In this document: one piece after another, positions 1 through 53,504 of the stretch
How the letters are laid out: every line of letters starts with the position of its first letter
How positions within the stretch are numbered: the stretch's first letter is position 1
Source of the DNA: Escherichia coli
GTDB taxonomy: Bacteria > Pseudomonadota > Gammaproteobacteria > Enterobacterales > Enterobacteriaceae
Length of the DNA: 64,000 bases
NCBI RefSeq assembly: GCF_016026235.1
Contig: NZ_CP065613.1
Direction: 5' to 3' (one strand)
The notes under the pieces: generated by a model
The model's database searches: none
What the model saw: only the letters and a program-made list of their open reading frames with translations
What the model was told of the DNA's origin: nothing
Translations under genes and position numbers: made by a program

Positions 1-176
1 CCATGGGTAAATCATTTTGAACGGCTATGGCAGGCGCTTCATGAAACGATAACGCGCAATCATCAGTGCCGGAGATGTGGCAGTTGCTGAAAAAAGTCCA
101 ACACTTTATGGAAACTGCCAGTCCGTTCCCCGGCGGGAGACATGGTCTGGCAAAAGTGTAGCGGTATTAGGCGCAG

Positions 177-865
177 CTATTTAGCGACATATTCCTTTGT
201 TTTATCGTCAGTTCGTAAACGTCCGATAGCGATGATGTGAAGTGCACTATTTGCAGCACGCTCCCCACCCCGATTAAGTCGGTAACGGTTCATTTTTTTA
301 GAAGATACGGTAACCGAGTTGACACCACACAGCACCGCAAAACCTGATTCTATTCTTAGCCGTTGGGGATTATCTCCGGCAGTGATGAGCAACTGCGAAG
401 CGCTTTCGTATCCAACAGCATTACGTTTAATCAGTTCAGGTGCCAGTTCATCGACAATTGCCGCAATCATGACATCAAGGTCGGCGATTTCATCATGTAA
501 CTCGAAATAGCGTCAGGCAAGTGATTTCAATGCAATGCGATAAACGTTGGTAACATTACGATATTCACTGGCACTAGGCTTCCAGGATCCCGGAGTCCTG
601 ATAAGTTGCATACGTGTCATATTTCTGAGTGGTTCGCGTAATTCATCCGGTGCAGAGATAATATAGGAATGGATAATCTGGAGAGCGACTCTGCAGGCTG
701 ATATTGCGGTTTTGCGGCAAGTTTTTGGCATCCGCTTCTACGCCAAATACCTGAAGTAGGAATGGATGCGTTAGCAGCATACATCCGGATCTGCGCGGGG
801 AATAGCCGGAAACGGCTATCCCTACCACAATAGCTAACTTTGTAATAGTGCCCTTTTAGGCTCAT
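177..865 (-). pseudogene. IS110-family transposase remnant (C-terminal portion only, frameshifted)
   Basis: ORF 177..470 (97 aa) carries the IS110-family C-terminal signature VGYESASQLLITAGDNPQRLRIESGFAVLCGV..SSGK..RYRLNRGGERAANSALH; the upstream frames (513..731, 617..865) are broken, and the N-terminal DEDD domain is missing because the LacI-type gene starts at 862. Confidence 0.45.
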
Positions 866-1893
866 GTACTCTGACGTAATTCTATCTGGTAGTTGAATTG
901 CACGATACGCGACTCTTCTGATTCATCATGATTATTATTCAATAGCCCAATCAGTAACTTACCCGTCTCTATCCCCATTTTTTTGTAGTCAATACGGATG
1001 GATGTCAAGGTTGGGTGTGTTTGATCGCAATTGTCTGAACCATCAAGACAAGCTACAGCGATATTTTCAGGAATTTTTAACAAACGCCGCTGGCACTCAA
1101 ACATGATACCCAGCGCAATCTCTTCGTGGCTGCAAATCACAGCATCCAGCTCTGGTTGTCGCAGTAATATCTCGTTTAATGCGTAACGCCCCAATTGCAG
1201 ACTTGCGGCATCCGGCATGGTGATAACAAGATCAGAGTTCTGGTAATGGCTCAACATTGCTTTATGCCAGCCGTTCAGTTGCTGACGTTGCAGGCGGTTG
1301 TCCATATGCGCACCGATAAATCCGATATTCTTATAACCCTGTTCCAGCAGATGTTCGGTCAGTTTATGTGATGCTTCAAAAAATGCTGTTTCGATGGTAA
1401 TTTGAGCCGGACTGAAAGGGGAACCGACAACGTTAATGGTAGGTATATTTGTTTTCTCGAGTATCTGGTGAGTTTTATCAGCCAACTGAGAACCAAAAAT
1501 AACTAACGCCGCCGGGTTGCCTTGAAGAAGCGTCATCAGAATTTCAGCTTCTTTGAGCTGATTATACTCATGACACCCAAGCAGTAGCTGGAATTCATTT
1601 TTATTAAGCACCTGCTGCAACGACTGCATAAAGCGGGAGCTGGCTTTATCTGTCAGGGAAGGAACCAGTACGGCGACTGTATCACTGTGACCAGATGCAA
1701 GGGCGCCAGCAGTTCTGTTGGGAATATAACCCAACTCTTCTACGGCCTGTTCTATCTTTTCCCTCAGCTTGTCAGATACCTGTTCCGGTGTTCTCAGCGC
1801 ACGGGAAACGGTCATGGTTCCGACACCTGCAAAGTTAGCGACCTCCTGCAGCGTCACCCGTCCGGTACCACGGCGCTTACGTGTTTTTTCCAT
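862..1893 (-). CDS. LacI-family transcriptional regulator (343 aa)
   Basis: N-terminal HTH (RVTLQEVANFAGVGTMTVSRAL) followed by a periplasmic-binding-protein-like sugar-binding fold; ATG at 1891-1893; divergent from the PTS genes. Confidence 0.8.
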   Translation of the reverse strand: MEKTRKRRGTGRVTLQEVANFAGVGTMTVSRALRTPEQVSDKLREKIEQAVEELGYIPNRTAGALASGHSDTVAVLVPSLTDKASSRFMQSLQQVLNKNEFQLLLGCHEYNQLKEAEILMTLLQGNPAALVIFGSQLADKTHQILEKTNIPTINVVGSPFSPAQITIETAFFEASHKLTEHLLEQGYKNIGFIGAHMDNRLQRQQLNGWHKAMLSHYQNSDLVITMPDAASLQLGRYALNEILLRQPELDAVICSHEEIALGIMFECQRRLLKIPENIAVACLDGSDNCDQTHPTLTSIRIDYKKMGIETGKLLIGLLNNNHDESEESRIVQFNYQIELRQST

Positions 1894-2038
1894 TTCGACT
1901 CCATGGATAATTACAACCAGCTGTTTTCATTACTGTTATTTCACCATTACTCTTTCCAGTTTTTGCCCACGGTAGCAAATATCCTGTTGCATTGTATATG
2001 CAGGAACCGAATATAGCCAAAGCATGGCGGCAGAGAAA

Positions 2039-2086
2039 TGATAGCGCTATCACAAAGATTGGTAGCGTTATCAGATAGCGCTATCA
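2039..2086. promoter_or_regulatory. Three LacI-type operator-like palindromes with central CG
   Basis: TGATAGCGCTATCA (2039-2052, perfect 14-bp palindrome), TGGTAGCGTTATCA (2059-2072) and AGATAGCGCTATCA (2073-2086), in the divergent regulator/PTS intergenic region. Confidence 0.5.
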
Positions 2087-2163
2087 AATGCGACAATCAT
2101 CACATTAATTAATGCGTAAAATATCTACTCTCCTGTTAATTATCATCGGGAGTTATCAGTAGC

Positions 2164-2607
2164 ATGTTAAAAAATCTATTAAATACAGAGGTCGTTCAGG
2201 TCGTGGAACAGGCCAAAGACTGGCGGGAAGCCGTGGCGATTTCATGCCGGCCGTTGATTGAAAACGGTTCTATCGAACCGCGTTATGTTGATGCGATCTA
2301 TCGCTCGCACGACACTATCGGTCCGTACTATGTGGTTGGCCCTGGTATTGCGATGCCTCATGCGCGCCCGGAAGAGGGAGCTAACAAGCTGTCATTAGCA
2401 CTGACCCTGATCCCTTCAGGTGTGAATTTTGATGCCGATGAAAACGATCCAGTGAAATTACTGATTGTGCTGGCTGCAACCGACAGTACCAGCCACATTG
2501 AAGCGATTTCTCAACTCGCCAAGTTATTCGATAACGAAAAAGACATACAGGCCATTTTGATGGCCAAAACGACGCAGGACATTTTGTCTGTTATTGCGCG
2601 CTATTAA
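2164..2607 (+). CDS. PTS enzyme IIA component, ascorbate (UlaC/SgcA-like) family
   Basis: 147 aa with PTS_EIIA_2-type motifs (GPYYVVGPGIAMPHARPEEG); GGGAG Shine-Dalgarno upstream of the ATG. Confidence 0.8.
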   Translation: MLKNLLNTEVVQVVEQAKDWREAVAISCRPLIENGSIEPRYVDAIYRSHDTIGPYYVVGPGIAMPHARPEEGANKLSLALTLIPSGVNFDADENDPVKLLIVLAATDSTSHIEAISQLAKLFDNEKDIQAILMAKTTQDILSVIARY

Positions 2608-2622
2608 TCCAGAGGAACATTT

Positions 2623-2910
2623 ATGAAAATTACAGTGGTTTGCGGTAACGGCTTAGGCACCAGCCTGATGATGGAAATGAGCATTAAAAGCATTTTGAAG
2701 GATTTGTCCGTCAGCGCTGATGTTGATCACGTCGACCTGGGCTCCGCGAAAGGGACGCCGAGTGATATCTATGTCGGCACCAAAGACATTGCCGAGCAGT
2801 TAGTCGCGCAGTCTGTCGCAGGCAAAATCGTCGCACTGGAAAATATGATTGATAAGAAAGCCATGAGAGAACGTTTATCCGTGGTATTAAACGAATTAGG
2901 CGCACTGTAA
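2623..2910 (+). CDS. PTS enzyme IIB component (UlaB-like)
   Basis: 95 aa; N-terminal KITVVCGNGLGTS cysteine phosphorylation-site motif typical of small IIB proteins. Confidence 0.8.
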   Translation: MKITVVCGNGLGTSLMMEMSIKSILKDLSVSADVDHVDLGSAKGTPSDIYVGTKDIAEQLVAQSVAGKIVALENMIDKKAMRERLSVVLNELGAL

Positions 2911-2922
2911 GCTGGGGGCGAT

Positions 2923-4179
2923 ATGGATTTCTTTCGTTTTTTGATGAGCGATGTACTTTCCGAACCCGCAGTGCTGGTCGGTTTAATCGCCCTGATTGGC
3001 CTGATTGCACAGAAAAAACCGGTAACCGAATGCATTAAAGGTACCGTCAAGACCATTATGGGGTTTGTGATTTTAGGCGCAGGGGCGGGTTTAGTTGTGT
3101 CGTCACTGGGTGACTTCGCAAACATTTTCCAGCATGCCTTTGGTATTCAGGGTGTAGTGCCGAACAATGAAGCCATTGTTTCCGTAGCGCAGAAAAGCTT
3201 CGGGAAAGAAATGGCGATGATTATGTTCTTTGCGATGGTTATCAACATTATGATTGCCCGTTTCACACCGTGGAAATTTATCTTCCTGACCGGTCATCAC
3301 ACGTTGTTTATGTCGATGATGGTAGCGGTAATTCTGGCAACAGCAGGCATGACCGGCATTACGCTTATAGCCGTTGGCTCTTTGGTTGTTGGCGTGGCAA
3401 TGGTCTTTTTCCCGGCTATTGCGCATCCGTACATGAAGAAAGTGACCGGTTCTGATGACGTTGCCATCGGCCACTTCTCAACATTATCTTATGTATTGGC
3501 CGGTTTCATCGGCAGCAAGTTTGGTAATAAAGAGCACTCGACTGAAGACATGAATGTGCCGAAAAGTCTGCTGTTCTTGCGCGACACGCCGGTTGCTATC
3601 TCTTTTACCATGAGCATAATTTTCCTGGTGACGTGCCTGTTTGCGGGTGCAGATGCGGTGAAAGAGCTTAGCGGTGGTAAAAACTGGTTCATGTTCTCTA
3701 TCATGCAATCCATTACCTTCGCAGCTGGCGTGTACATCATTCTGCAGGGTGTGCGCATGGTGATTGCGGAGATTGTCCCGGCATTCAAAGGTATTTCAGA
3801 CAAGCTGGTTCCGAATGCCAGACCTGCTCTCGATTGCCCGGTCGTCTTCCCTTACGCACCTAACGCTGTACTGGTTGGTTTCCTGAGTAGCTTTGCTGCA
3901 GGTTTAATCGGTATGTTCACGTTGTATCTGCTGAACATGATCGTGATTATTCCTGGTGTGGTGCCGCACTTCTTCGTAGGTGCAGCTGCAGGGGTATTCG
4001 GTAATGCAACGGGTGGACGTCGTGGTGCGATTTTGGGTGCCTTCGCTCAAGGCTTGCTTATTACCTTCCTGCCAGTATTCTTATTGCCGGTGCTGGGTGA
4101 TATTGGTTTTGCTAACACCACCTTCAGTGATGCTGACTTTGGCGCACTGGGTATTTTGTTAGGGATTATCGTTCGCTAA
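2923..4179 (+). CDS. PTS enzyme IIC permease, ascorbate (UlaA/SgaT) family
   Basis: 418 aa polytopic membrane protein with UlaA-like segments (IKGTVKTIMGF, VAEIVPAFKGISDKLVPNA). Confidence 0.85.
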   Translation: MDFFRFLMSDVLSEPAVLVGLIALIGLIAQKKPVTECIKGTVKTIMGFVILGAGAGLVVSSLGDFANIFQHAFGIQGVVPNNEAIVSVAQKSFGKEMAMIMFFAMVINIMIARFTPWKFIFLTGHHTLFMSMMVAVILATAGMTGITLIAVGSLVVGVAMVFFPAIAHPYMKKVTGSDDVAIGHFSTLSYVLAGFIGSKFGNKEHSTEDMNVPKSLLFLRDTPVAISFTMSIIFLVTCLFAGADAVKELSGGKNWFMFSIMQSITFAAGVYIILQGVRMVIAEIVPAFKGISDKLVPNARPALDCPVVFPYAPNAVLVGFLSSFAAGLIGMFTLYLLNMIVIIPGVVPHFFVGAAAGVFGNATGGRRGAILGAFAQGLLITFLPVFLLPVLGDIGFANTTFSDADFGALGILLGIIVR

Positions 4180-4192
4180 TATTTTGATGACA

Positions 4193-4245
4193 TTAATATC
4201 CTCCAGGATTTCAGGAACGTGGAGGATATTAATTCCTCTTATTTT
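4193..4245 (+). terminator. Intrinsic terminator after the PTS operon
   Basis: Perfect 13-bp inverted repeat TTAATATCCTCCA...TGGAGGATATTAA (4193-4232) followed by a T-rich tract. Confidence 0.6.
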
Positions 4246-4418
4246 CTCCATTTTTCTTTCTTCCAGTCAGGACTGCATCCGATTAATCGTAAGGCAGTAT
4301 GACTTTCTGTGAGACAGATGCTGGCCAACGTGGGATATTTAACGCGGGTTAACATCGTTGTCAGAGCCGCATGGGTGAGCTGTTGCTACACCCCGGTATT
4401 TCCACCACGGAGGCCAGC

Positions 4419-5546
4419 ATGAACAACAATAACACATTGTACGTCGGGTTAGATGTTCACAAAGAATCGATTACTGTCGCTTATGCTATCAATTCAGAAC
4501 CTGTTGAACTGATGGGTAAAATTGGCACATCACCTACTGATATTCAGAATCTTTGTAAACGTCTCAGGTCAAAGTCATCGCAGGTCAGTATCGTTTATGA
4601 AGCGGGGCCCTGTGGTTATGGACTTTATCGTCGGCTGGTGAAATCCGGTTTTGACTGCATGGTCTGCGCCCCCTCACTTATCCCGAAAAAACCGGGGGAG
4701 CGGGTTAAAACCGATCGCCGTGATGCCATCAGACTTGTGCGTTCACTGCGTGCAGGAGATCTTTCTGCTGTCTACGTACCCGGCATTGAAGATGAGGCAT
4801 TCCGGGATTTGGCCCGGGCATGGGCATCTGCCCGCGATGATTTACGGCATGCAAGGCAACGTCTGAAATCGTTTCTTCTGGTTCATGGGGTCCATTATGT
4901 CGGGCGAGCAGATTGGGGCCCTGCACACCGACGCTGGCTCAGCAAATACTCATTCGAAAGTCCCTGGCGACAATTAGCTTTTGACGAACACCGTCGTACA
5001 ATAGAAGACCGGCAGGCACAATGTGAACGGCTGGAATCCGCCCTGAAGGAGGCCGTTACCGAATGGAGGCTGTATCCGGTAGTAGAGGCGCTGCAAGCCA
5101 TGCGAGGGATTCAGTTTATTACTGCGGTTGGATTAATTTCTGAACTGGGTGATCTGACCCGTTTTGAACATCCACGACAACTGATGTCATGGTTTGGTAT
5201 CACGCCATCAGAATATTCATCGGGTGGAAGCAGACATCAGGGCAGCATTACCAAAGCCGGAAACAGCTATGCCAGAAAGCTATTGGTCGAGGCAGCGTGG
5301 AGTTACCGTCATCCGGCACGCATCAGTCCGGCAATACAAAAAAGGCAGGAAAATTTACCCCGCCCCGTCATTGACAGAGCATGGGATGCTCAACTCAGGC
5401 TTTGTAAGAGGTATCGAAAACTTCAGGCCAAAGGAAAGAATGTCAATATTACAATTGTTGCTGTTGCACGTGAGCTGGCGGGTTTTATCTGGGATATGGG
5501 CCGAATAGCAATATCTGTCGCACAACAACCACAATGTCACAAATAA
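4419..5546 (+). CDS. IS110-family transposase/recombinase (375 aa from the SD-preceded ATG; the ORF track starts at 4371)
   Basis: N-terminal LYVGLDVHKESI RuvC-like DEDD domain and C-terminal Transposase_20-type region (GITPSEYSSGGSRHQGSITKAGNSYARKLL); GGAGG 7 nt upstream of the ATG at 4419. Confidence 0.8.
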   Translation: MNNNNTLYVGLDVHKESITVAYAINSEPVELMGKIGTSPTDIQNLCKRLRSKSSQVSIVYEAGPCGYGLYRRLVKSGFDCMVCAPSLIPKKPGERVKTDRRDAIRLVRSLRAGDLSAVYVPGIEDEAFRDLARAWASARDDLRHARQRLKSFLLVHGVHYVGRADWGPAHRRWLSKYSFESPWRQLAFDEHRRTIEDRQAQCERLESALKEAVTEWRLYPVVEALQAMRGIQFITAVGLISELGDLTRFEHPRQLMSWFGITPSEYSSGGSRHQGSITKAGNSYARKLLVEAAWSYRHPARISPAIQKRQENLPRPVIDRAWDAQLRLCKRYRKLQAKGKNVNITIVAVARELAGFIWDMGRIAISVAQQPQCHK

Positions 5547-5565
5547 AAAATGAGAATAACCAGTT

Positions 5566-5748
5566 CCCTGAAGGCGACGTAGCCCGGTACAAGAGTAACC
5601 CACGTTAGCGCTTGGCGACGGCGGAACAAAGCTGATTCGCGACGTAAGAAAGTGGCAGGCTCATATGACGGACCTCTGTAATGCGGTATCCAACCCGCGA
5701 ATATCAGCGTGATTCACCGTCGGATTTACTGCTACGTCGCCCTCAGGG
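5566..5748 (+). other. Long-range inverted repeat enclosing 147 bp downstream of the IS110-family recombinase (candidate structured RNA)
   Basis: CCCTGAAGGCGACGTAGC (5566-5583) is complementary at 17 of 18 positions to GCTACGTCGCCCTCAGGG (5731-5748). Confidence 0.4.
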
Positions 5749-6134
5749 AATTAAACCTAAAAAGAAAATCGTCAAAATTAGAGATTCCGGTTTGACACGG
5801 AAAGTCATATCAGCGCTGACGGGTGACCCTAAGCCCTGATAATCATAGCTTAAGGTGAGGATTTATGAGGGATTAATTAGGAAAAGTAATAATTAATTTG
5901 TTGTCAGTCGGCGATGTTTGTTAGGCCAATATTTCAAAAATAATCCAGCTTGTCGTCAATAATTGCGATAAAGAGATAAATTAAAGTTAAATAATTAAAT
6001 CATTAAAAAATTACGCCATTAAAATGCGAGGCGTCTTCCGGATTAGAATCGATAAAACAGAATGGGTTAAAGAGAGCGATATAATAGCGGCGGGTGCTTG
6101 AGGCTGTCTGTCTCAGGCATTAGCTGAACGGCAG

Positions 6135-6195
6135 ATAGAGAAAAGCCCCGAGTGATATTTTACCATCAACCCGAGGCCCCCTATATGCTGAACAC
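6135..6195 (-). ncRNA. sokC: sokC antisense RNA of the hokC/mokC locus (position inferred)
   Basis: In hok/sok loci the Sok RNA is antisense to the mok start region; TTGACC (reverse complement of 6223-6228) is a candidate -35. Coordinates are approximate. Confidence 0.3.
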
Positions 6196-6394
6196 ATGTA
6201 GAGTGCCTCTTACTGACCGTAAGGTCAAGGAGAAGAGAGCAATGAAGCAGCATAAGGCGATGATTGTCGCCCTGATCGTCATCTGTATCACCGCCGTAGT
6301 GGCGGCGCTGGTAACGAGAAAAGACCTCTGTGAGGTTCACATCCGAACTGGCCAGACGGAGGTTGCTGTTTTCACGGCTTACGAATCCGAGTAA
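6185..6394 (+). CDS. mokC: MokC, overlapping regulatory reading frame of hokC
   Basis: 69-codon frame MLNTCRVPLTDRKVKEKRA... that contains hokC in the same frame. Confidence 0.65.
   Translation: MLNTCRVPLTDRKVKEKRAMKQHKAMIVALIVICITAVVAALVTRKDLCEVHIRTGQTEVAVFTAYESE
6242..6394 (+). CDS. hokC: HokC (Gef) small membrane toxin
   Basis: 50 aa MKQHKAMIVALIVICITAVVAALVTRKDLCEVHIRTGQTEVAVFTAYESE, matching the Hok family. Confidence 0.85.
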   Translation: MKQHKAMIVALIVICITAVVAALVTRKDLCEVHIRTGQTEVAVFTAYESE

Positions 6395-6417
6395 GAGCAA
6401 CGGCGGGGAGTGATCCC

Positions 6418-7711
6418 CTGAGGGATCCCCAGAAAATTTAGTAAACCATTATCATATTGGTATACCGTTGCTGTAGAACTTTCAGCCCTGCGTCAAGTGA
6501 CAGTGTGTTTAGTATGAGTGGAGAATGTCGAATCACATTCTCCGCCAGTTTTAATAACGAGATGACTCGCCTGTGCTTCACTGTATTTGCCTGATATTTA
6601 TGATGTATCCCTTTGTTTTCCAGGCTGAAACCGCTTAACCACATAATGATACTGGCTAATGTTGCGATCAGACTCAATACCGTGACCCGCCCGGATGAAT
6701 GACTGGCACCAAACCGTAGTCCAAATCCCCAGCGAGGATTTTTTTCATCCCTGAAATTTTGCTCAATTTGCATTCTACGGCTGTATAATTTCATTACCTG
6801 TTTTGGCGAGAACTCAGTACTGTTTGTGAAAATAAACCATGGTGATTTCCCGGCAGTACGAGCTTTAGCCGTCACCGATGGTCTGGTTGCTCTTTCCTTC
6901 GAGCGTTTAAATCTACGACCTTTAGGCTTACTTTTATAAAGATAAAAATGCCCTTCATGTTGTGCATTTTTATCTCGACCCAGCAGGCCTTCACCTAAAT
7001 AAATTGCTGTCGTTGATGCTTTTGTGCCTGAGTCCGACACCTTTTCCCAGCCATTACCAACATTGTAATAATGATTGCCCAGTACCCGGCAAATATAGGT
7101 CCAGCCACGGGAGCGGAGCTGTTGGAACCATCGCCCCTGAAAACCGGCATCTGTAATAACAATGACATCAGTCCCGGGGGAAAAGCACTCAGCAAGCGAT
7201 TCCAGAAAACGCTCATGTACATCTGCATTCGCTGTCTGTGATGATGGAACGACACAACTCATCAACGGTAAAGAACGCCCGTCACATGCCAGGCTTGCCC
7301 GCAAAAGCTGAAAACGAGAGGCATGATAAGCACTCCAGTCAATGAGTATCACAACACGAGACATTCCCCGCGTAATCTTTTGGGTAATTCGCTGAAAAAT
7401 GGTGGAAACCTCATTTTGCAAATGTCGATTCCCCAACAGTCGATCCACCCGCTTTATTTTGTTTTTAACTGATGCCGTACCGGTTAAATGACGCCCGATA
7501 CTGGTAAGTGTGAGGGAAGCGCCATTTATTACAGCATTAGTTGCGTCAATCAGTGATTTTTGACGGTAAAGATGCAAAGGGGCCAGTATATTGTTAAGGA
7601 AATTTTGGCATAATGAACGTGCAGGCATAGTGGTGATCTCCTTGAAATTGTTAGCACAATCAATTAGATCACATCTCACTATGCCTGTCTTGTTTTCTGG
7701 GGATTCCTCAG
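6418..7711 (-). mobile_element. IS10-like (IS4-family) insertion sequence, intact copy, about 1.29 kb
   Basis: Terminal inverted repeats CTGAGGGATCCCCAGAAAA (left) and CTGAGGAATCCCCAGAAAA (right, reverse complement), resembling IS10 ends; flanked by direct repeat GAGTGATCC(C) at 6408-6417 and 7712-7721. Confidence 0.8.
6438..7628 (-). CDS. IS4-family (IS10-group) transposase, 396 aa
   Basis: Shares IS10 transposase motifs (KIKRVDRLLGNRHL, DWSA, DAGF, YSRRMQIEQNFRDEK, QANTVKHRRV); true start is MPARSL at 7628, the ORF-track start at 7727 lies outside the element. Confidence 0.85.
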   Translation of the reverse strand: MPARSLCQNFLNNILAPLHLYRQKSLIDATNAVINGASLTLTSIGRHLTGTASVKNKIKRVDRLLGNRHLQNEVSTIFQRITQKITRGMSRVVILIDWSAYHASRFQLLRASLACDGRSLPLMSCVVPSSQTANADVHERFLESLAECFSPGTDVIVITDAGFQGRWFQQLRSRGWTYICRVLGNHYYNVGNGWEKVSDSGTKASTTAIYLGEGLLGRDKNAQHEGHFYLYKSKPKGRRFKRSKERATRPSVTAKARTAGKSPWFIFTNSTEFSPKQVMKLYSRRMQIEQNFRDEKNPRWGFGLRFGASHSSGRVTVLSLIATLASIIMWLSGFSLENKGIHHKYQANTVKHRRVISLLKLAENVIRHSPLILNTLSLDAGLKVLQQRYTNMIMVY

Positions 7712-7760
7712 GAGTGATCCCCGCCACTTTACAGGTGCTCGCATATCTTCAACGCACCCT

Positions 7761-7794
7761 ATTTTTACCCAGGCCTGCCCACGGGCAGGCTTTT
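7761..7794. terminator. Bidirectional hairpin terminator between dnaJ and the hokC side
   Basis: GCCTGCCCacgGGCAGGC hairpin with TTTT on the plus strand and an A/T run on the minus strand. Confidence 0.4.
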
Positions 7795-7801
7795 GGGGAG
7801 G

Positions 7802-8932
7802 TTAGCGGGTCAGGTCGTCAAAAAACTTCTTCACACCATCAAAGAAGCTCTTTGAGCGCGGGCTGTTGTGCTCGCCGGTTGGGCCACCGAAGCTTTCTTG
7901 CAGCTCTTGCAGCAGCTGTTTCTGCTTCTCGTTCAGGCCTACCGGTGTTTCGACGACAACGCGGCACAGCAAATCACCCTGTGCGCCACCGCGGACAGAC
8001 TTGACGCCTTTACCGCGCATACGGAATAGCTTACCGGTCTGGGTTTCGCCAGGCACTTTCAGTTTGACGCGACCATCAAGGGTCGGTACTTCGATTTCGC
8101 CACCCAGCGCCGCCATAGCGAAGTTGATCGGGACTTCGCAATACAGGTTGTTGCCTTCACGCTCGAAAATCGGGTGCTGTTTAACCTGAACCTGAACGTA
8201 CAGATCGCCTGCCGGTGCGCCATGCTCGCCCGCTTCACCTTCGCCCGCAAGACGGATGCGGTCTCCAGTGTCCACCCCTGCCGGGATTTTAACGGACAGC
8301 GTTTTGCTGCGCTCAACACGACCATGACCATGACATTTGTTGCACGGATCTTTGATCAGCGTACCGCGGCCCTGACAGTGTGGACAGGTCTGCTGCACGG
8401 CAAAGAAACCCTGGCGCATCTGCACCTGACCAGAACCATGACAGGTCGGACAGGTCTGCGGCTGTGTACCTGGTTTTGCACCGCTACCGTGGCAAACGTC
8501 ACACTCTTCCAGAGTCGGAATGCGGATCTCTTTGGTCACGCCACGTACAGCTTCTTCGAGGGTGAGCTCCATGTTATAGCGTAAATCAGCACCGCGCGCC
8601 GCACGTTGACGACCACGTCCGCCGCCAAAAATATCGCCGAAAACGTCACCAAAAATATCGCTGAAGTCTGCGCCGCCGCCAAAACCGCCGCCGCCCATGC
8701 CACCTTGCTCAAACGCAGCATGACCATACTGATCGTATGCCGCACGTTTTTGCGAGTCGGTCAGAACTTCATAAGCTTCCTTGATCTCTTTAAATTTCGC
8801 CTCGGCCTCTTTGTCACCCTGGTTACGGTCTGGGTGGTATTTCATGGCCAGGCGTTTGTAGGCCTTTTTGATTTCACGCTCTTCCGCTGTTTTGGAAACG
8901 CCTAAAATCTCGTAATAATCTTGCTTAGCCAT
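7802..8932 (-). CDS. dnaJ: Chaperone DnaJ (Hsp40)
   Basis: [13 protein letters not shown]-domain, Gly/Phe-rich region and CxxCxGxG zinc-finger repeats; 376 aa. Confidence 0.95.
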
Positions 8933-9020
8933 CTTTTTTAAATTGCCCCTAGATGAATGCACGGGCGGAGAGGAAATTCCCCTTCGCCCGTGTCAGTATA
9001 ATTACCCGTTTATAGGGCGA

Positions 9021-10937
9021 TTATTTTTTGTCTTTGACTTCTTCAAATTCAGCGTCGACAACATCGTCATCTTTCGCGTTGTTTGCAGAAGCATCAGCAC
9101 CGGCAGTCTGCTGCTGGGCATGTTGCTGCTGGGCGATTTCCATCAGTTTCTGGGAAACCTGTGCCAGTTCCTGCATTTTCGCTTCGATAGCGGCTTTGTC
9201 TTCACCTTTCAGAGCAGTTTCCAGTGCAGTCAGCGCAGACTCGATAGCAGTTTTGTCGTCAGCCGGCAGTTTGTCGCCTGCTTCTTCAACCTGCTTACGG
9301 GTGCTGTGCAGCAGATGGTCGCCCTGGTTGCGAGTCTGTACCAGCTCTTCAAACTTACGGTCAGCTTCGGCGTTAGCTTCTGCGTCGCGTACCATTTTCT
9401 GGATTTCATCTTCGTTCAGACCAGAAGAAGCCTTGATGGTGATCTTCTGCTCTTTACCGCTGTTTTTATCTTTCGCGGAAACGTGCAGGATACCGTCAGC
9501 ATCGATATCGAAGGTAACTTCGATCTGCGGCATGCCGCGCGGTGCCGGGTTGATACCATCCAGGTTGAACTGACCCAGAGATTTGTTATCAGCCGCACGT
9601 TTACGTTCACCCTGCAGCACGTGGATGGTTACCGCAGACTGGTTGTCTTCAGCGGTAGAGAACACCTGGCTGTGCTTGGTCGGGATAGTGGTGTTTTTCG
9701 CGATCAGCGTCGTCATCACACCGCCCATGGTTTCGATACCCAGAGACAGCGGGGTAACGTCCAGCAGCAGTACGTCTTTTACGTCACCAGTCAGAACACC
9801 ACCCTGAACAGCAGCACCGATTGCTACAGCTTCGTCCGGGTTAACATCTTTACGCGGCTCTTTACCAAAGAACTCAGCAACTTTCTTCTGAACCATTGGC
9901 ATACGAGTCTGACCACCAACGAGGATAACGTCGTCGATATCAGATACGGACAGGCCAGCGTCCTGCAGTGCAACTTTCAGCGGCTCAATGGAACGGTTTA
10001 CCAGATCTTCAACCAGGCTTTCCAGTTTCGCACGAGTCACTTTGATGTTCATGTGTTTCGGACCGGTCGCGTCTGCAGTGATGTACGGCAGGTTAACGTC
10101 GGTCTGCTGAGCGGAAGACAGTTCGATTTTCGCTTTTTCTGCCGCTTCTTTCAGGCGCTGCATTGCCAGCGGATCGTTGCGCAGGTCAATGCCCTGATCT
10201 TTCTTGAATTCTTCAACCAGATAGTTGATCAGACGGCTGTCGAAGTCTTCACCACCCAGGTGGGTATCACCGTTGGTTGCCAGAACTTCGAAGGTTTTTT
10301 CGCCGTCAACTTCGTCGATTTCGATAATAGAAATATCGAAAGTACCACCACCCAGGTCATAAACCGCGATAGTACGGTTGCCAGTACCTTTGTCCAGACC
10401 GTAAGCCAGCGCAGCTGCGGTCGGTTCGTTGATGATACGTTTTACTTCGAGACCAGCGATACGGCCTGCGTCTTTGGTTGCCTGACGCTGAGCATCGTTA
10501 AAGTATGCCGGTACGGTGATAACAGCTTCAGTTACCGGTTCACCCAGGTAATCTTCAGCGGTTTTCTTCATTTTTTTCAGCACTTCAGCAGAGATCTGCG
10601 GCGGTGCCATTTTCTGGCCTTTAACTTCGACCCATGCGTCGCCGTTATCAGCAGCAATAATTTTGAACGGCATGATGGAAACATCACGCTGTACTTCTTC
10701 GTCCTGGAAGCGGCGGCCAATCAGGCGTTTAATCGCAAACAGGGTGTTTTGCGGGTTCGTCACTGCCTGACGTTTAGCCGGCTGACCAACCAGAGTTTCA
10801 CCATCCTGGGTATAGGCAATAATAGAAGGCGTGGTGCGATCGCCTTCGGCGTTCTCCAGCACGCGAGGAGTGGTGCCATCCATAATCGCTACACAAGAGT
10901 TGGTAGTACCCAGGTCGATACCAATTATTTTACCCAT
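9021..10937 (-). CDS. dnaK: Chaperone DnaK (Hsp70)
   Basis: [21 protein letters not shown]... 638 aa, immediately upstream of dnaJ. Confidence 0.97.
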
Positions 10938-10985
10938 CTAAACGTCTCCACTATATATTCGGTCATCATGTGGTTGTGAGTCTGT

Positions 10986-11089
10986 AATAGGGGCGAAACG
11001 TCTGGTTTCAACTGCCCAATTTCATTTTTTTGCAGACTCACTCACTGCGGTTGACTACTAAATGGGGTCGTAACCCACGTCATCAAGGG
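10986..11089 (-). promoter_or_regulatory. dnaK heat-shock (sigma-32) promoters P1 and P2
   Basis: On the minus strand: CCCTTGATG ... CCCCATTTA (P1, 11059-11089) and TTGAAA ... CCCCTATTA (P2, 10986-11011), matching the sigma-32 consensus. Confidence 0.6.
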
Positions 11090-11313
11090 GGAGATGCAAA
11101 AATTTTTTGTGCTTTTGCTCAGAAATTTCGCGATATGGCAGGACAAGACGTAAAATTGACAGCAATTTTATTCATATAAAGAATGAATCGCAGCCAAGGT
11201 ATTCATCAAAAAATTGTAATAAAAAGAAAAGATTACGTGCCTGAATCTTCTCTTTATCAGCAGTAAACTAGTGGGTATTCATCCCCCTACCTCTTCCCAC
11301 TAAGAGAATCCTT

Positions 11314-11718
11314 ATGAAATCCGTTTTTACGATTTCCGCCAGCCTGGCGATTAGCCTGATGCTGTGCTGCACGGCGCAGGCAAACGACCATAAACTCCTC
11401 GGCGTCATTGCAATGCCGCGTAACGAAACCAACGATCTGGCGCTGAAACTTCCTGTTTGTCGCATTGTGAAACGCATACAACTCTCTGCCGACCATGGCG
11501 ATTTACAGTTAAGCGGTGCATCGGTTTATTTCAAAGCCGCCCGTAGCGCCAGTCAGAGCCTGAATATTCCTTCAGAAATAAAAGAAGGGCAAACCACTGA
11601 CTGGATCAACATTAACAGTGATAACGACAATAAACGCTGCGTCTCAAAAATCACCTTTTCCGGTCATACGGTGAACTCATCGGATATGGCCACGCTGAAA
11701 ATTATCGGCGACGACTAA
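11314..11718 (+). CDS. yaaI: DUF2541 secreted protein YaaI
   Basis: 134 aa with signal peptide; K-12 gene order dnaK-yaaI. Confidence 0.9.
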
Positions 11719-11743
11719 CGCCAGAATATAGAAGCCACAAAAA

Positions 11744-12457
11744 ATGAATGTTAATTACCTGAATGATTCAGATCTGGATTTTCTCCAGCATTGTAGTGAG
11801 GAACAGTTAGCAAATTTCGCCCAGCTGCTCACCCATAATGAAAAAGGCAAAACTAGCCTCTCCAGCGTACTGATGCGCAACGAACTGTTTAAATCGATGG
11901 AAGGACATCCCGAGCAACATCGCCGCAACTGGCAGCTGATTGCTGGAGAATTACAGCATTTTGGTGGCGATAGTATCGCCAACAAACTGCGCGGACACGG
12001 TAAATTGTATCGGGCCATTTTGCTCGATGTTTCAAAACGATTGAAGCTGAAAGCCGACAAAGAGATGTCTACGTTTGAAATTGAGCAACAGTTACTGGAA
12101 CAATTTCTGCGTAATACCTGGAAGAAAATGGACGAGGAACATAAGCAGGAGTTTCTGCACGCGGTCGATGCCAGGGTGAATGAGCTGGAAGAGCTGCTGC
12201 CGCTGCTGATGAAAGACAAATTATTGGCAAAAGGCGTGTCGCATTTGCTTTCCAGCCAATTGACCCGCATTTTACGCACCCACGCAGCAATGAGCGTGCT
12301 TGGGCATGGTTTGCTGCGCGGCGCGGGTCTGGGAGGCCCTGTGGGCGCAGCATTAAATGGGGTTAAAGCGGTCAGCGGCAGCGCCTATCGCGTGACGATT
12401 CCAGCCGTACTGCAAATCGCCTGCCTGCGCCGGATGGTTAGCGCCACTCAGGTCTGA
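11744..12457 (+). CDS. yaaW: Uncharacterized protein YaaW
   Basis: 237 aa, K-12 synteny. Confidence 0.9.
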   Translation: MNVNYLNDSDLDFLQHCSEEQLANFAQLLTHNEKGKTSLSSVLMRNELFKSMEGHPEQHRRNWQLIAGELQHFGGDSIANKLRGHGKLYRAILLDVSKRLKLKADKEMSTFEIEQQLLEQFLRNTWKKMDEEHKQEFLHAVDARVNELEELLPLLMKDKLLAKGVSHLLSSQLTRILRTHAAMSVLGHGLLRGAGLGGPVGAALNGVKAVSGSAYRVTIPAVLQIACLRRMVSATQV

Positions 12458-12605
12458 TACCGGAAACCGGGGAAAATTTTCATTTTCCCCTCAAAAGATC
12501 GTAGACACTGCCCCACTGGCTGATTATTATGCCGCGCCCTGAAAACACTACAGTTATTCAGGGAAATTATTTCACCATTCATTCGATGATGATTTTTGAG
12601 GAATT

Positions 12606-13172
12606 ATGGGCAACACTAAGTTGGCTAATCCGGCACCGCTGGGCCTGATGGGCTTCGGCATGACCACCATTCTGCTTAACCTGCACAACGTGGGTTATTT
12701 CGCTCTGGACGGTATTATTCTTGCCATGGGCATTTTCTACGGCGGCATCGCGCAAATTTTTGCCGGTCTGCTGGAGTACAAAAAAGGCAACACTTTCGGT
12801 TTAACCGCATTCACCTCTTACGGTTCTTTCTGGCTGACGCTGGTTGCGATTCTGCTGATGCCGAAACTGGGTCTGACCGATGCGCCAAATGCACAGTTCC
12901 TTGGTGTCTACCTGGGTCTGTGGGGCGTATTTACGCTGTTTATGTTCTTCGGCACTCTGAAAGGCGCACGCGTCCTGCAATTCGTTTTCTTTAGCCTGAC
13001 CGTGCTGTTTGCCCTGCTGGCGATCGGTAACATTGCCGGTAATGCCGCGATCATCCACTTTGCCGGCTGGATTGGTCTGATCTGCGGTGCCAGCGCAATC
13101 TATCTGGCGATGGGTGAAGTGCTGAACGAGCAGTTTGGTCGCACCGTTCTGCCGATTGGTGAATCCCACTAA
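12606..13172 (+). CDS. satP: Succinate-acetate/proton symporter SatP (YaaH)
   Basis: 188 aa GPR1/FUN34/YaaH-family membrane protein. Confidence 0.9.
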   Translation: MGNTKLANPAPLGLMGFGMTTILLNLHNVGYFALDGIILAMGIFYGGIAQIFAGLLEYKKGNTFGLTAFTSYGSFWLTLVAILLMPKLGLTDAPNAQFLGVYLGLWGVFTLFMFFGTLKGARVLQFVFFSLTVLFALLAIGNIAGNAAIIHFAGWIGLICGASAIYLAMGEVLNEQFGRTVLPIGESH

Positions 13173-52506: not shown

Positions 52507-53112
52507 TTACTTAGTTTTCAGATCATTTTTAACGCTTTTCACACCATCTACCGCTTTGGCGATACTTTCAGCACAGTCACTTTGTGCCTGAGAATCTACG
52601 GTACCGGAGAGCTGAACCACACCATCGGTGGTTTCAACTTTCACTTTACGTGAAGGAACGATATCGTCCGCCAGCAGTTTGGCTTTGATTTCACTGGTGG
52701 TGGCGGTGTCACCCGCGTAGCCCTTCACAGAGCCTTCTTTAGCGTCGCGAACGTGCAGTTTGTCGCTGACAGAGGTCACGCCTTCAACGCCTTTCGCCAC
52801 TTTCACTGCCTCTTCGGCCTGGGCCTGGCTTTCAACGAAACCGCTCAGGGTCACGACTTTTTGATCGGTTTTGACAGAGATATCGGTGCTCTTGATGTTG
52901 TCATGATCCACCAGGGCCGCCTTCACTTTCGCGGTGATGGCGCTGTCATCCATGAAATTACCGACTTTATTCATAGAGCTATCGACTTTTTGCCCTGCGC
53001 TTTCATTGGTAGTCTGTGCGTTGTTTTCCGCGTAGGCAGAGCCGGTCGCGACGGCAGAGGTCAACATTACAGCCAGCAGAGTTTTCGAAATCTTCAGTCT
53101 TGTCATAGTCAT
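52507..53112 (-). CDS. osmY: Osmotically inducible periplasmic protein OsmY
   Basis: [28 protein letters not shown] signal peptide and two BON domains; 201 aa. Confidence 0.93.
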
Positions 53113-53504
53113 CGATTTATTCCTGTATGTTTGCTCGTAATTTGAGCCTGGCAACACGAGGTTGCATTGCTGAATAGGGAGAGACTTCACCCTCTACAGA
53201 AGTCAATGGTCGCCATCACAAAAGCGATGGGTGATGAATAACGACCATTACAGCCTCTGAATCAGTTATTAATATCGGTAGAATGACAATCGACGGCTTT
53301 AGATACTGATATCTACGCATTGAACGGTATTTAACGCCATCAGAAATGTCATTACTTTGTTAAATATAGATCACAATTTTGAAACCGCTCGGGATATCCC
53401 CTAAAACATAAGCAAAAGTGAATGTTTTAAGAACATTCCGTAAGCGGCTAATAAGGAAGGGAAATTGACAGGGCGCAGCGGCTACCGCGCCCTGGAGGCT
53501 AGAA

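Follow-up and report, generated by a model that had tools for sequence, protein, structure and literature searches.

The vpe locus of pathogenic Escherichia coli, an accessory phosphotransferase system (PTS) that published work connects with urovirulence, production of capsule and colonization of the gut, is found in about one in six complete genomes of the species. Here we analyzed a stretch of E. coli DNA (64,000 nucleotides, referred to as the window) whose left end carries a compact PTS cassette with genes for a LacI-type regulator and for enzymes IIA, IIB and IIC, and we find that this cassette is very probably vpe, a four-gene accessory locus in which VpeA, VpeB and VpeC are proposed to form a relay under the control of VpeR. 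The original prediction for this DNA had presented the cassette as an orphan. That claim was not borne out: vpe has already been described and named, it normally lies one open reading frame (ORF) away from the deoK operon, and the supposed orphan is a known virulence-associated accessory PTS. What we add (a candidate operator, a case against ascorbate as the substrate, the breadth and autonomy of the module, and an ISSso6 rearrangement in this genome) is modest; it narrows the experiments that are needed and leaves unchanged the picture of a known accessory PTS in a rearranged context.

The identification follows from gene order in other genomes, read against two published descriptions. Positions 1 to 4293 of the window are 100% identical in DNA to E. 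coli DA33135, where the same DNA sits inside a pathogenicity island. The four genes are present, at 99 to 100% DNA identity to the window, in DA33135, an O103:H2 strain, STEC17-190 and NCTC 86, and in each of these the order is LacI regulator, IIA, IIB, IIC, one small transposase ORF and then genes for an aldose-1-epimerase-like protein, a FucP-like permease, a ribokinase-like kinase and a DeoR regulator. We take these last four genes to be the deoK operon because of their order, their product types and the placement of deoK in both papers. Read directly, the NCTC 86 region is the tRNA-Leu (leuX) island, and its IIA, IIB and IIC accessions are the same as those of DA33135. The first paper places the vpe PTS locus together with deoK on ROD 40 of NCTC 86, with the supplementary table entry "valS-fecE, Vpe - pts system" (PMC5382810); the second describes vpe as four ORFs followed by a one-ORF gap and then deoK (PMC6455142). 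All four strains thus carry what vpe is described to be, a four-ORF PTS locus in a tRNA-associated island with a single ORF between it and the deoK operon, and the same holds for the vpe of extraintestinal pathogenic E. coli on leuX/pheV pathogenicity islands. The window copy differs from the latter in lacking the deoK side of the island and adjoining ISSso6-mokC-dnaJ instead.

The leuX island also carries a second sugar module, comprising an RpiR-family regulator, a PtsG-like PTS IIC and an N-acetylmannosamine-6-phosphate epimerase-like (NanE-like) gene, which is situated some 2 kb left of the point where the window starts (positions 9582-12817 of the extracted locus L001 in DA33135 and 1-3087 of L107 in NCTC 86). 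We considered this trio as a candidate for vpe and rejected it: it comprises three genes and does not lie one ORF away from deoK, so only the present cassette agrees with the description of four ORFs.

The PTS proteins and their relatives

All four cassette ORFs in the window's ORF list are full length and intact (Table 1), and the Shine-Dalgarno sequence is intact as well. Three tightly packed plus-strand ORFs, vpeA, vpeB and vpeC, are separated by a 270-bp intergenic region from vpeR. The predicted layout of a regulator followed by IIA was therefore right about the genes, but the regulator lies outside the 1894-4245 segment to which the module had been assigned and is divergently transcribed rather than on the same strand. 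The predicted terminator found a plausible counterpart in a hairpin 3' of vpeC (about 4186-4238; -21.3 kcal/mol, z = -3.46, with none of 200 shuffles as good). Its stem is AT-rich and the tail behind it is T-rich but interrupted, and it may plausibly serve as the intrinsic terminator of the operon. Since homology across genera stops at 4186, the hairpin belongs to the E. coli island alone. An Rfam scan found no RNA family within the cassette.

Table 1. Features of the vpe cassette and its immediate flanks, in window coordinates
Feature	Position	Strand	Evidence or remark
Degenerate transposase remnant	177-734	-	Weak IS110-family match, in the 177-470 piece only
vpeR, LacI/GalR-family transcriptional regulator, 343 aa	862-1893	-	Pfam LacI helix-turn-helix and Peripla_BP_1/3; divergent from the transporter genes
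Candidate sigma-70 promoter of vpeR, TTGGCT-18-TACAAT	1991-2020	-	Predicted, from a consensus scan only
Candidate operator O1, TGATAGCGCTATCA	2039-2052		Perfect palindrome; invariant in five genera
Candidate operator O2, TGGTAGCGTTATCA	2060-2073		2 mismatches; some lineages only
Candidate operator O3, AGATAGCGCTATCA	2073-2086		1 mismatch; 34 bp from O1; invariant in five genera
CRP-like site, TGCGACAATCATCACA	2089-2104		1 mismatch to TGTGA-N6-TCACA; putative function
vpeA, PTS enzyme IIA, 147 aa	2164-2607	+	PTS_EIIA_2, E = 3e-36
vpeB, PTS enzyme IIB, 95 aa	2623-2910	+	PTS_IIB, E = 2e-12
vpeC, PTS enzyme IIC of the SgaT/UlaA family, 418 aa	2923-4179	+	NCBIfam NF006919; PF03611 EIIC-GAT
Hairpin and T-rich tail, plausible intrinsic terminator	4186-4260	+	Fold energy and shuffling
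ISSso6, IS110 family, intact, not part of the vpe module	4289-5820	+	Transposase ORF 4371-5546, 273.6 bits

Profile searches matched the four proteins to the PTS_EIIA_2, PTS_IIB, EIIC-GAT and LacI families, in agreement with the predicted ascorbate-family PTS under a LacI-type regulator. VpeC scores 628 bits against the NCBIfam model NF006919 (cutoff 380) and lies above the cutoff of NF009553 as well, a protein identical to it is assigned PF03611, and its residues 3-392 match the UlaA structures 4RP8 and 5ZOV (E = 2.5e-50), which are its only solved homologues in the structure database. Pfam, NCBIfam and structure matches agree in making VpeC a homologue of UlaA and a member of the SgaT/UlaA family. 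As in that family, it is accompanied by a separate IIB with an N-terminal Cys and an EIIA_2-type IIA with a His. The His of UlaC and the Cys of UlaB are catalytic residues; VpeA His66 aligns with UlaC His68 and VpeB Cys7 with UlaB Cys9. VpeA also has a full-length match, at 244 bits, to the PDB entry 3OXP ("Phosphotransferase enzyme II, A component", 150 aa).

Gly58 and Gly286 of UlaA act as pivots and Arg288 is essential (PMC6048161). Their VpeC equivalents, Gly54, Gly276 and Arg278, are invariant in all orthologues aligned and in UlaA, and UlaA His135, His194 and Asp314 are likewise conserved. The module is under strong purifying selection: vpeC of E. coli and Yersinia differ at 193 synonymous versus 17 non-synonymous codons.

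In their family, three-protein architecture, V-motif glycines and the conserved Arg, His, Asp and Cys positions just described, the Vpe proteins resemble UlaABC, yet identity is only 31, 27 and 38% for VpeC, VpeB and VpeA against UlaA, UlaB and UlaC. The K-12 ula region reads ulaR (DeoR type), ulaG, ulaA (IIC), ulaB (IIB), ulaC (IIA) and ulaDEF, which confirms that the IIA-IIB-IIC order of vpe is the reverse of ulaABC and that its regulator is LacI-type where UlaR is DeoR-type. VpeC is also shorter than UlaA (418 versus 465 aa), and UlaABC has linked lactonase, decarboxylase and epimerase genes whereas vpe has none. SgcABC of K-12, with its galactitol-type IIC, is like vpe a poorly characterized accessory PTS, and VpeA is 39% identical to SgcA; VpeC, however, has no significant similarity to SgcC (E = 0.47), and the sgc cluster includes an epimerase, other enzymes and a DeoR-type regulator that vpe does not. 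A relocated copy of ulaABC or sgcABC, raised as a possible refutation in the original prediction, was rejected on these identities and on prevalence. The ula genes are almost universal in E. coli, and a near-copy would match nearly all genomes; by megablast just 1349 of 5426 complete genomes match.

VpeR and the control region

Residues 14-59 of VpeR match the Pfam LacI helix-turn-helix and are followed by a Peripla_BP_3/1 effector domain, the architecture of the LacI/GalR family. Its best NCBIfam matches are the Pseudomonas aeruginosa GntR model (279 bits), IdnR (208), E. coli GntR (175) and RbsR (147), all far below their cutoffs. Among structures, the effector domain has a 230-bit match to 3D8U ("PurR transcriptional regulator", 275 aa), and 3H5O "GntR" is the second-best match for the protein. 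With 3OXP for VpeA and 3D8U for VpeR, structures are available for close homologues of both proteins.

The intergenic region contains three operator-like sites within 48 bp, compared with 0.17 expected by chance in the whole window. O1 and O3 are invariant across a five-genus alignment in which the surrounding intergenic DNA has diverged; the TACAAT block of the candidate vpeR promoter is conserved in Buttiauxella and Yersinia. We counted co-occurrence of operator and regulator over the 78 loci with an identified IIA. Every locus with the regulator (71 of 71) has one to three TGATAGCGCTATCA-type sites upstream of IIA, usually two or three, and none of the seven regulator-less loci, from Xenorhabdus, Ca. 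Fukatsuia and Serratia microhaemolytica, carries any. As background, 1.5 Mb yielded 24 matches on both strands, which amount to about 12 distinct sites since the motif is palindromic. The 34-bp spacing of the outer sites is kept in 61 of the 68 loci with at least two sites. VpeR is thus paired, as LacI/GalR regulators are, with a predicted palindromic operator that has a central CG and is inherited together with it. Because the operators are conserved and loss of the regulator is paired with loss of the operators, there is good comparative evidence that VpeR binds the TGATAGCGCTATCA motif. It would presumably act as a repressor rather than an activator, given the usual behavior of LacI-family proteins.

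A CRP-like site occurs at the same position in 42 of the 78 loci, versus 2.6% of random windows, and is restricted to certain lineages. In the gal operon, the LacI-family repressor GalR has an operator next to the CRP site at galP1. The vpe region resembles gal in its LacI-family regulator, in palindromes with a central CG, in having one operator directly upstream of a CRP-like site and in the fixed spacing of several operators. It differs in that its operators stand in tandem within 48 bp while those of gal are split across the promoter, and their positions relative to a vpe promoter are predicted ones.

The seven loci from Xenorhabdus, Ca. Fukatsuia and S. microhaemolytica keep IIA-IIB-IIC but have neither the LacI regulator nor any operator site, apparently because the module's regulatory half was lost naturally there. 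One more operator-like sequence in the window, TGATGGCGCTGTCA (2 mismatches; 52935-52948), lies inside a minus-strand ORF (52507-53190) and is probably a chance match.

Distribution, mechanism and substrate

The full cassette is present in 935 of the 5426 complete E. coli genomes (17%), and most of the roughly 400 other matching genomes appear to keep only a 3' fragment of vpeC. Outside E. coli, orthologues at 85 to 99% protein identity occur in 80 species of about 20 genera from the Enterobacterales, the Vibrionales and Aeromonas: Buttiauxella, Yersinia (including Y. pestis), Enterobacter, Klebsiella, Cedecea, Citrobacter, Edaphovirga, Brenneria, Serratia, Providencia, Proteus, Edwardsiella, Photorhabdus, Xenorhabdus, Ca. 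Fukatsuia, Vibrio, Photobacterium, Grimontia and Aeromonas.

We called ORFs in the 10-kb flanks of these loci and clustered them by all-against-all blastp. Only four clusters span at least 16 genera: IIC (79 loci, the position reference), IIA and IIB (78 and 73 loci, upstream on the same strand) and the LacI regulator (71 loci, divergent in every case and some 1 kb upstream of IIC). The Pfam-annotated contexts of eight genera likewise fit conservation of these four genes only, and DNA homology between E. coli and Buttiauxella extends from 861 to 4186, that is, from the stop codon of the regulator to just past that of IIC. Next in breadth come clusters of local core genes. In Yersinia, Brenneria and Proteus they comprise ackA, pta and, on the downstream side, a Nudix gene; in Buttiauxella, a HAD-type hydrolase gene precedes the module and a gene for a pstB-like ABC ATPase follows it. 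From Pfam domains and the K-12 gene order, we take the Nudix gene to be yfcD, the hydrolase yieH and the ATPase pstB.

Two recurrent neighbors were considered as metabolic partners and rejected. The HAD phosphatases encoded close to the module in Buttiauxella, Edwardsiella, Vibrio and Yersinia proved to be different local genes: a yieH context, a neighboring cellobiose-type PTS cluster, a phnX-like gene and a yfbT context. The Nudix gene directly 3' of the module in Yersinia, Brenneria and Proteus corresponds in domain and position to yfcD, which follows pta in K-12. Catabolic genes that might lie beyond the window edge were sought in DA33135, the O103:H2 strain, STEC17-190 and NCTC 86: to the left is insertion sequence (IS) debris, in some strains with the unrelated RpiR/PtsG-like/NanE-like set or fatty-acid-type genes, and to the right is the deoK operon, which no other genus has linked to the module. 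The claim that the module has no linked catabolic enzymes thus stood in E. coli and across the 80 species, where presence/absence and neighborhood comparison found the four genes staying together and no constant linkage to outside catabolic genes.

On these grounds the vpe module may be expected to work as follows. Phosphate from phosphoenolpyruvate would pass through enzyme I and HPr to His66 of VpeA and then to Cys7 of VpeB, which would phosphorylate a carbohydrate bound in the core domain of VpeC during inward transport, with VpeC acting as an elevator-type IIC that moves as described for UlaA. VpeR would sit at the TGATAGCGCTATCA palindromes O1, O2 and O3 upstream of vpeA and repress until a substrate-derived effector is present, and the CRP-like site just downstream of O3 may add catabolite/CRP control in E. 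coli and its closest relatives. With no catabolic gene accompanying the module, processing of the phosphorylated product would fall to core metabolism or to genes located elsewhere.

Several points weigh against this reading of the cassette as vpe with such a relay and such control. The identification is strong but indirect, as it runs through two secondary papers and gene order rather than a direct alignment to the AL511 type sequence; none of the database sources searched for the name "Vpe" gives it to these proteins; and NCBI labels the IIC "PTS ascorbate transporter subunit IIC", with the model cutoff passed, so that ascorbate or a close analogue keeps some probability as the substrate. 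As to control, loci from Proteus, Providencia and Edwardsiella and most of those from Vibrio lack the CRP-like site, a promoter scan gave no good sigma-70 match for vpeA, and the operators, instead of covering an obvious -10/-35 pair, are found 5' of the CRP-like site. Because of this position and the lack of a good vpeA promoter, the geometry of repression is uncertain. One hypothetical layout would center the CRP-like site at -41.5, which would place the start of transcription near 2138, with TACTCT as the -10 element and O3 near -58.

There is some chance, though a small one, that the module is an old self-sufficient uptake unit of Enterobacterales, Vibrionales and Aeromonas for a substrate new to the PTS, for instance an aldonate-type sugar acid that phosphorylation would turn directly into a central metabolite, with VpeR governing a new TGATAGCGCTATCA regulon. 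A related and unlikely possibility is that a sugar acid (a gluconate- or idonate-like aldonate or ketoaldonate) is taken up and yields a central metabolite such as 6-phosphogluconate, so that no catabolic genes would be needed. The gluconate- and idonate-type matches of VpeR, including the second-ranked 3H5O, give a weak hint of a sugar acid, the only characterized member of the transporter family carries a sugar-acid lactone, and the module stands alone amid differing neighbors in about 20 genera. Against this, the regulator matches fall far below cutoffs, a distance at which effector specificity in the LacI family is not reliably predicted, and the nearest out-group IICs (about 50% identity), which are either orphans or lie beside transketolase, transaldolase, SIS isomerase or DeoC-type aldolase genes, give an equally weak hint of neutral ketose or pentose phosphates. 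Transfer of a substrate from these contexts was rejected in its own right, the contexts being mixed and too distant.

It is improbable that vpe encodes a second L-ascorbate transporter, one that would feed ascorbate-6-phosphate to the core ulaG/ulaDEF enzymes, even with the NF006919 score, UlaA as the only solved homologue and the conserved His, His, Asp and Arg residues in its favor. Vitamin C is contacted in UlaA by Thr86, Tyr87, His135, Ile136, Gln139, His194, Gln195, Asp314, Ile358, Phe362 and Met410 (PMC6048161). In an alignment of seven orthologues with UlaA, VpeC keeps H135, H194, D314 and F362 and has a conservative change of I358 to V; it has T86N, Y87E, I136H, Q139F and Q195F, all five identical in the seven orthologues, and M410F, a position with F or I among the orthologues. 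At least five of the 11 ascorbate contacts are thus replaced non-conservatively, and the score against the UlaA equivalog model NF009549 is 592 bits against a cutoff of 890, with the IIA and IIB below the cutoffs of their Ula models too. L-ascorbate is probably not the substrate because the contact residues are replaced and the equivalog score is below threshold; the transport and phosphotransfer machinery has been kept, with a different specificity pocket. Nor is UlaR the regulator here, VpeR having an operator of its own, and no linked ulaG, ulaDEF or DeoR-type ulaR was found in the window, the E. coli islands or the 80 other species. The prediction that the substrate cannot be inferred was therefore broadly right, but the sequence does argue against L-ascorbate.

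Equally doubtful is a mainly sensory or regulatory PTS branch that would alter surface polysaccharide and virulence traits through its phosphorylation state and have no nutritional role. In one paper, vpe mutants of the uropathogenic E. coli strain AL511 are reported to have much less group 2 capsule (PMC5382810), the other cites vpe as a promoter of intestinal colonization in mice (PMC6455142), and the absence of linked catabolic genes fits this explanation. However, VpeC keeps all transport and phosphotransfer residues under strong purifying selection, conserved operators together with a LacI repressor of the substrate type usually mark an inducible uptake system, and the capsule defect may arise indirectly from a lost supply of carbon or precursor. 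Finally, the vpe copy of this genome can hardly be a decaying, non-functional island remnant severed from its partners by IS activity: IS debris to the left, the ISSso6 rearrangement to the right, the absence of deoK and the roughly 400 genomes with only a vpeC fragment would fit decay, but the ORFs, operators and Shine-Dalgarno sequence show no damage, strains with a complete island share the DNA at 100% identity, and the module is self-contained in other genera, so loss of deoK should not matter.

In Yersinia, Brenneria and Proteus the module lies between pta and the Nudix gene. A location common to three genera from different families points to an old site on the chromosome. For the E. coli copy the nearest counterpart is that of Buttiauxella (98 to 99% protein and 84% DNA identity), which suggests later acquisition into the E. 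coli island. Most of the roughly 400 partial E. coli genomes appear to carry just the last 876 bp of vpeC (window region 3302-4293) as a pseudogene that still adjoins deoK. In E. coli U14A, the truncated vpeC (6003-6878 of the extracted locus L104) abuts a transposase fragment and a cluster of IclR, DHDPS-family, UxaA-family hydrolase, PdxA-family dehydrogenase and MFS transporter genes.

Flanking insertion sequences and rearrangement

The cassette had been described as bracketed by IS110-family sequences, which holds for the intact ISSso6 on the right and only loosely for the left, where there is an unrelated degenerate remnant. Its 177-470 piece matches NCBIfam NF033542 weakly (25 bits, E = 8e-6), its 513-731 piece has no NCBIfam match, and in DA33135 and NCTC86 it is annotated as a transposase pseudogene with an internal stop. 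It has no DNA or protein similarity to ISSso6, of which the window holds just one copy, and we therefore rejected a composite transposon of two IS110-family copies. The right flank of the cassette in other E. coli genomes is formed by an IS66-type TnpA fragment.

Positions 4289-12440 of the window are 99.9% identical to E. coli FDAARGOS_943, where the order is nhaR-nhaA-ISSso6-mokC-ISEc60-dnaJ-dnaK; in the window, the nhaA side of this order is replaced by the cassette, and both nhaA and the deoK operon are absent. None of the 5426 complete E. coli genomes has the vpeC-ISSso6-mokC junction (window 4289-6440), nor does any of the species-representative genomes. ISSso6 marks the breakpoint of a rearrangement because the window matches DA33135 up to 4293 and FDAARGOS_943 from 4289, and the simplest reading is that recombination at ISSso6 copies joined an island fragment to the mokC-ISEc60-dnaJ region. 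The cassette, originally noted to sit where the K-12 map has no such genes, is accordingly not an insertion into that map here: ISSso6 joins an island fragment to mokC-ISEc60-dnaJ, which is the nhaA site in related strains.

Beyond ISSso6, a sok antitoxin RNA (Rfam RF01794, 119.5 bits; window 6092-6394) overlaps the mokC/hokC toxin ORF, and an IS4-family element, annotated as ISEc60 in a related strain, occupies 6438-7727 between mokC/hokC and dnaJ. The dnaK-dnaJ intergenic region contains a minus-strand match to the small RNA family tpke11 in Rfam (8933-9000, 53.9 bits), which is cut by the end of the searched stretch.

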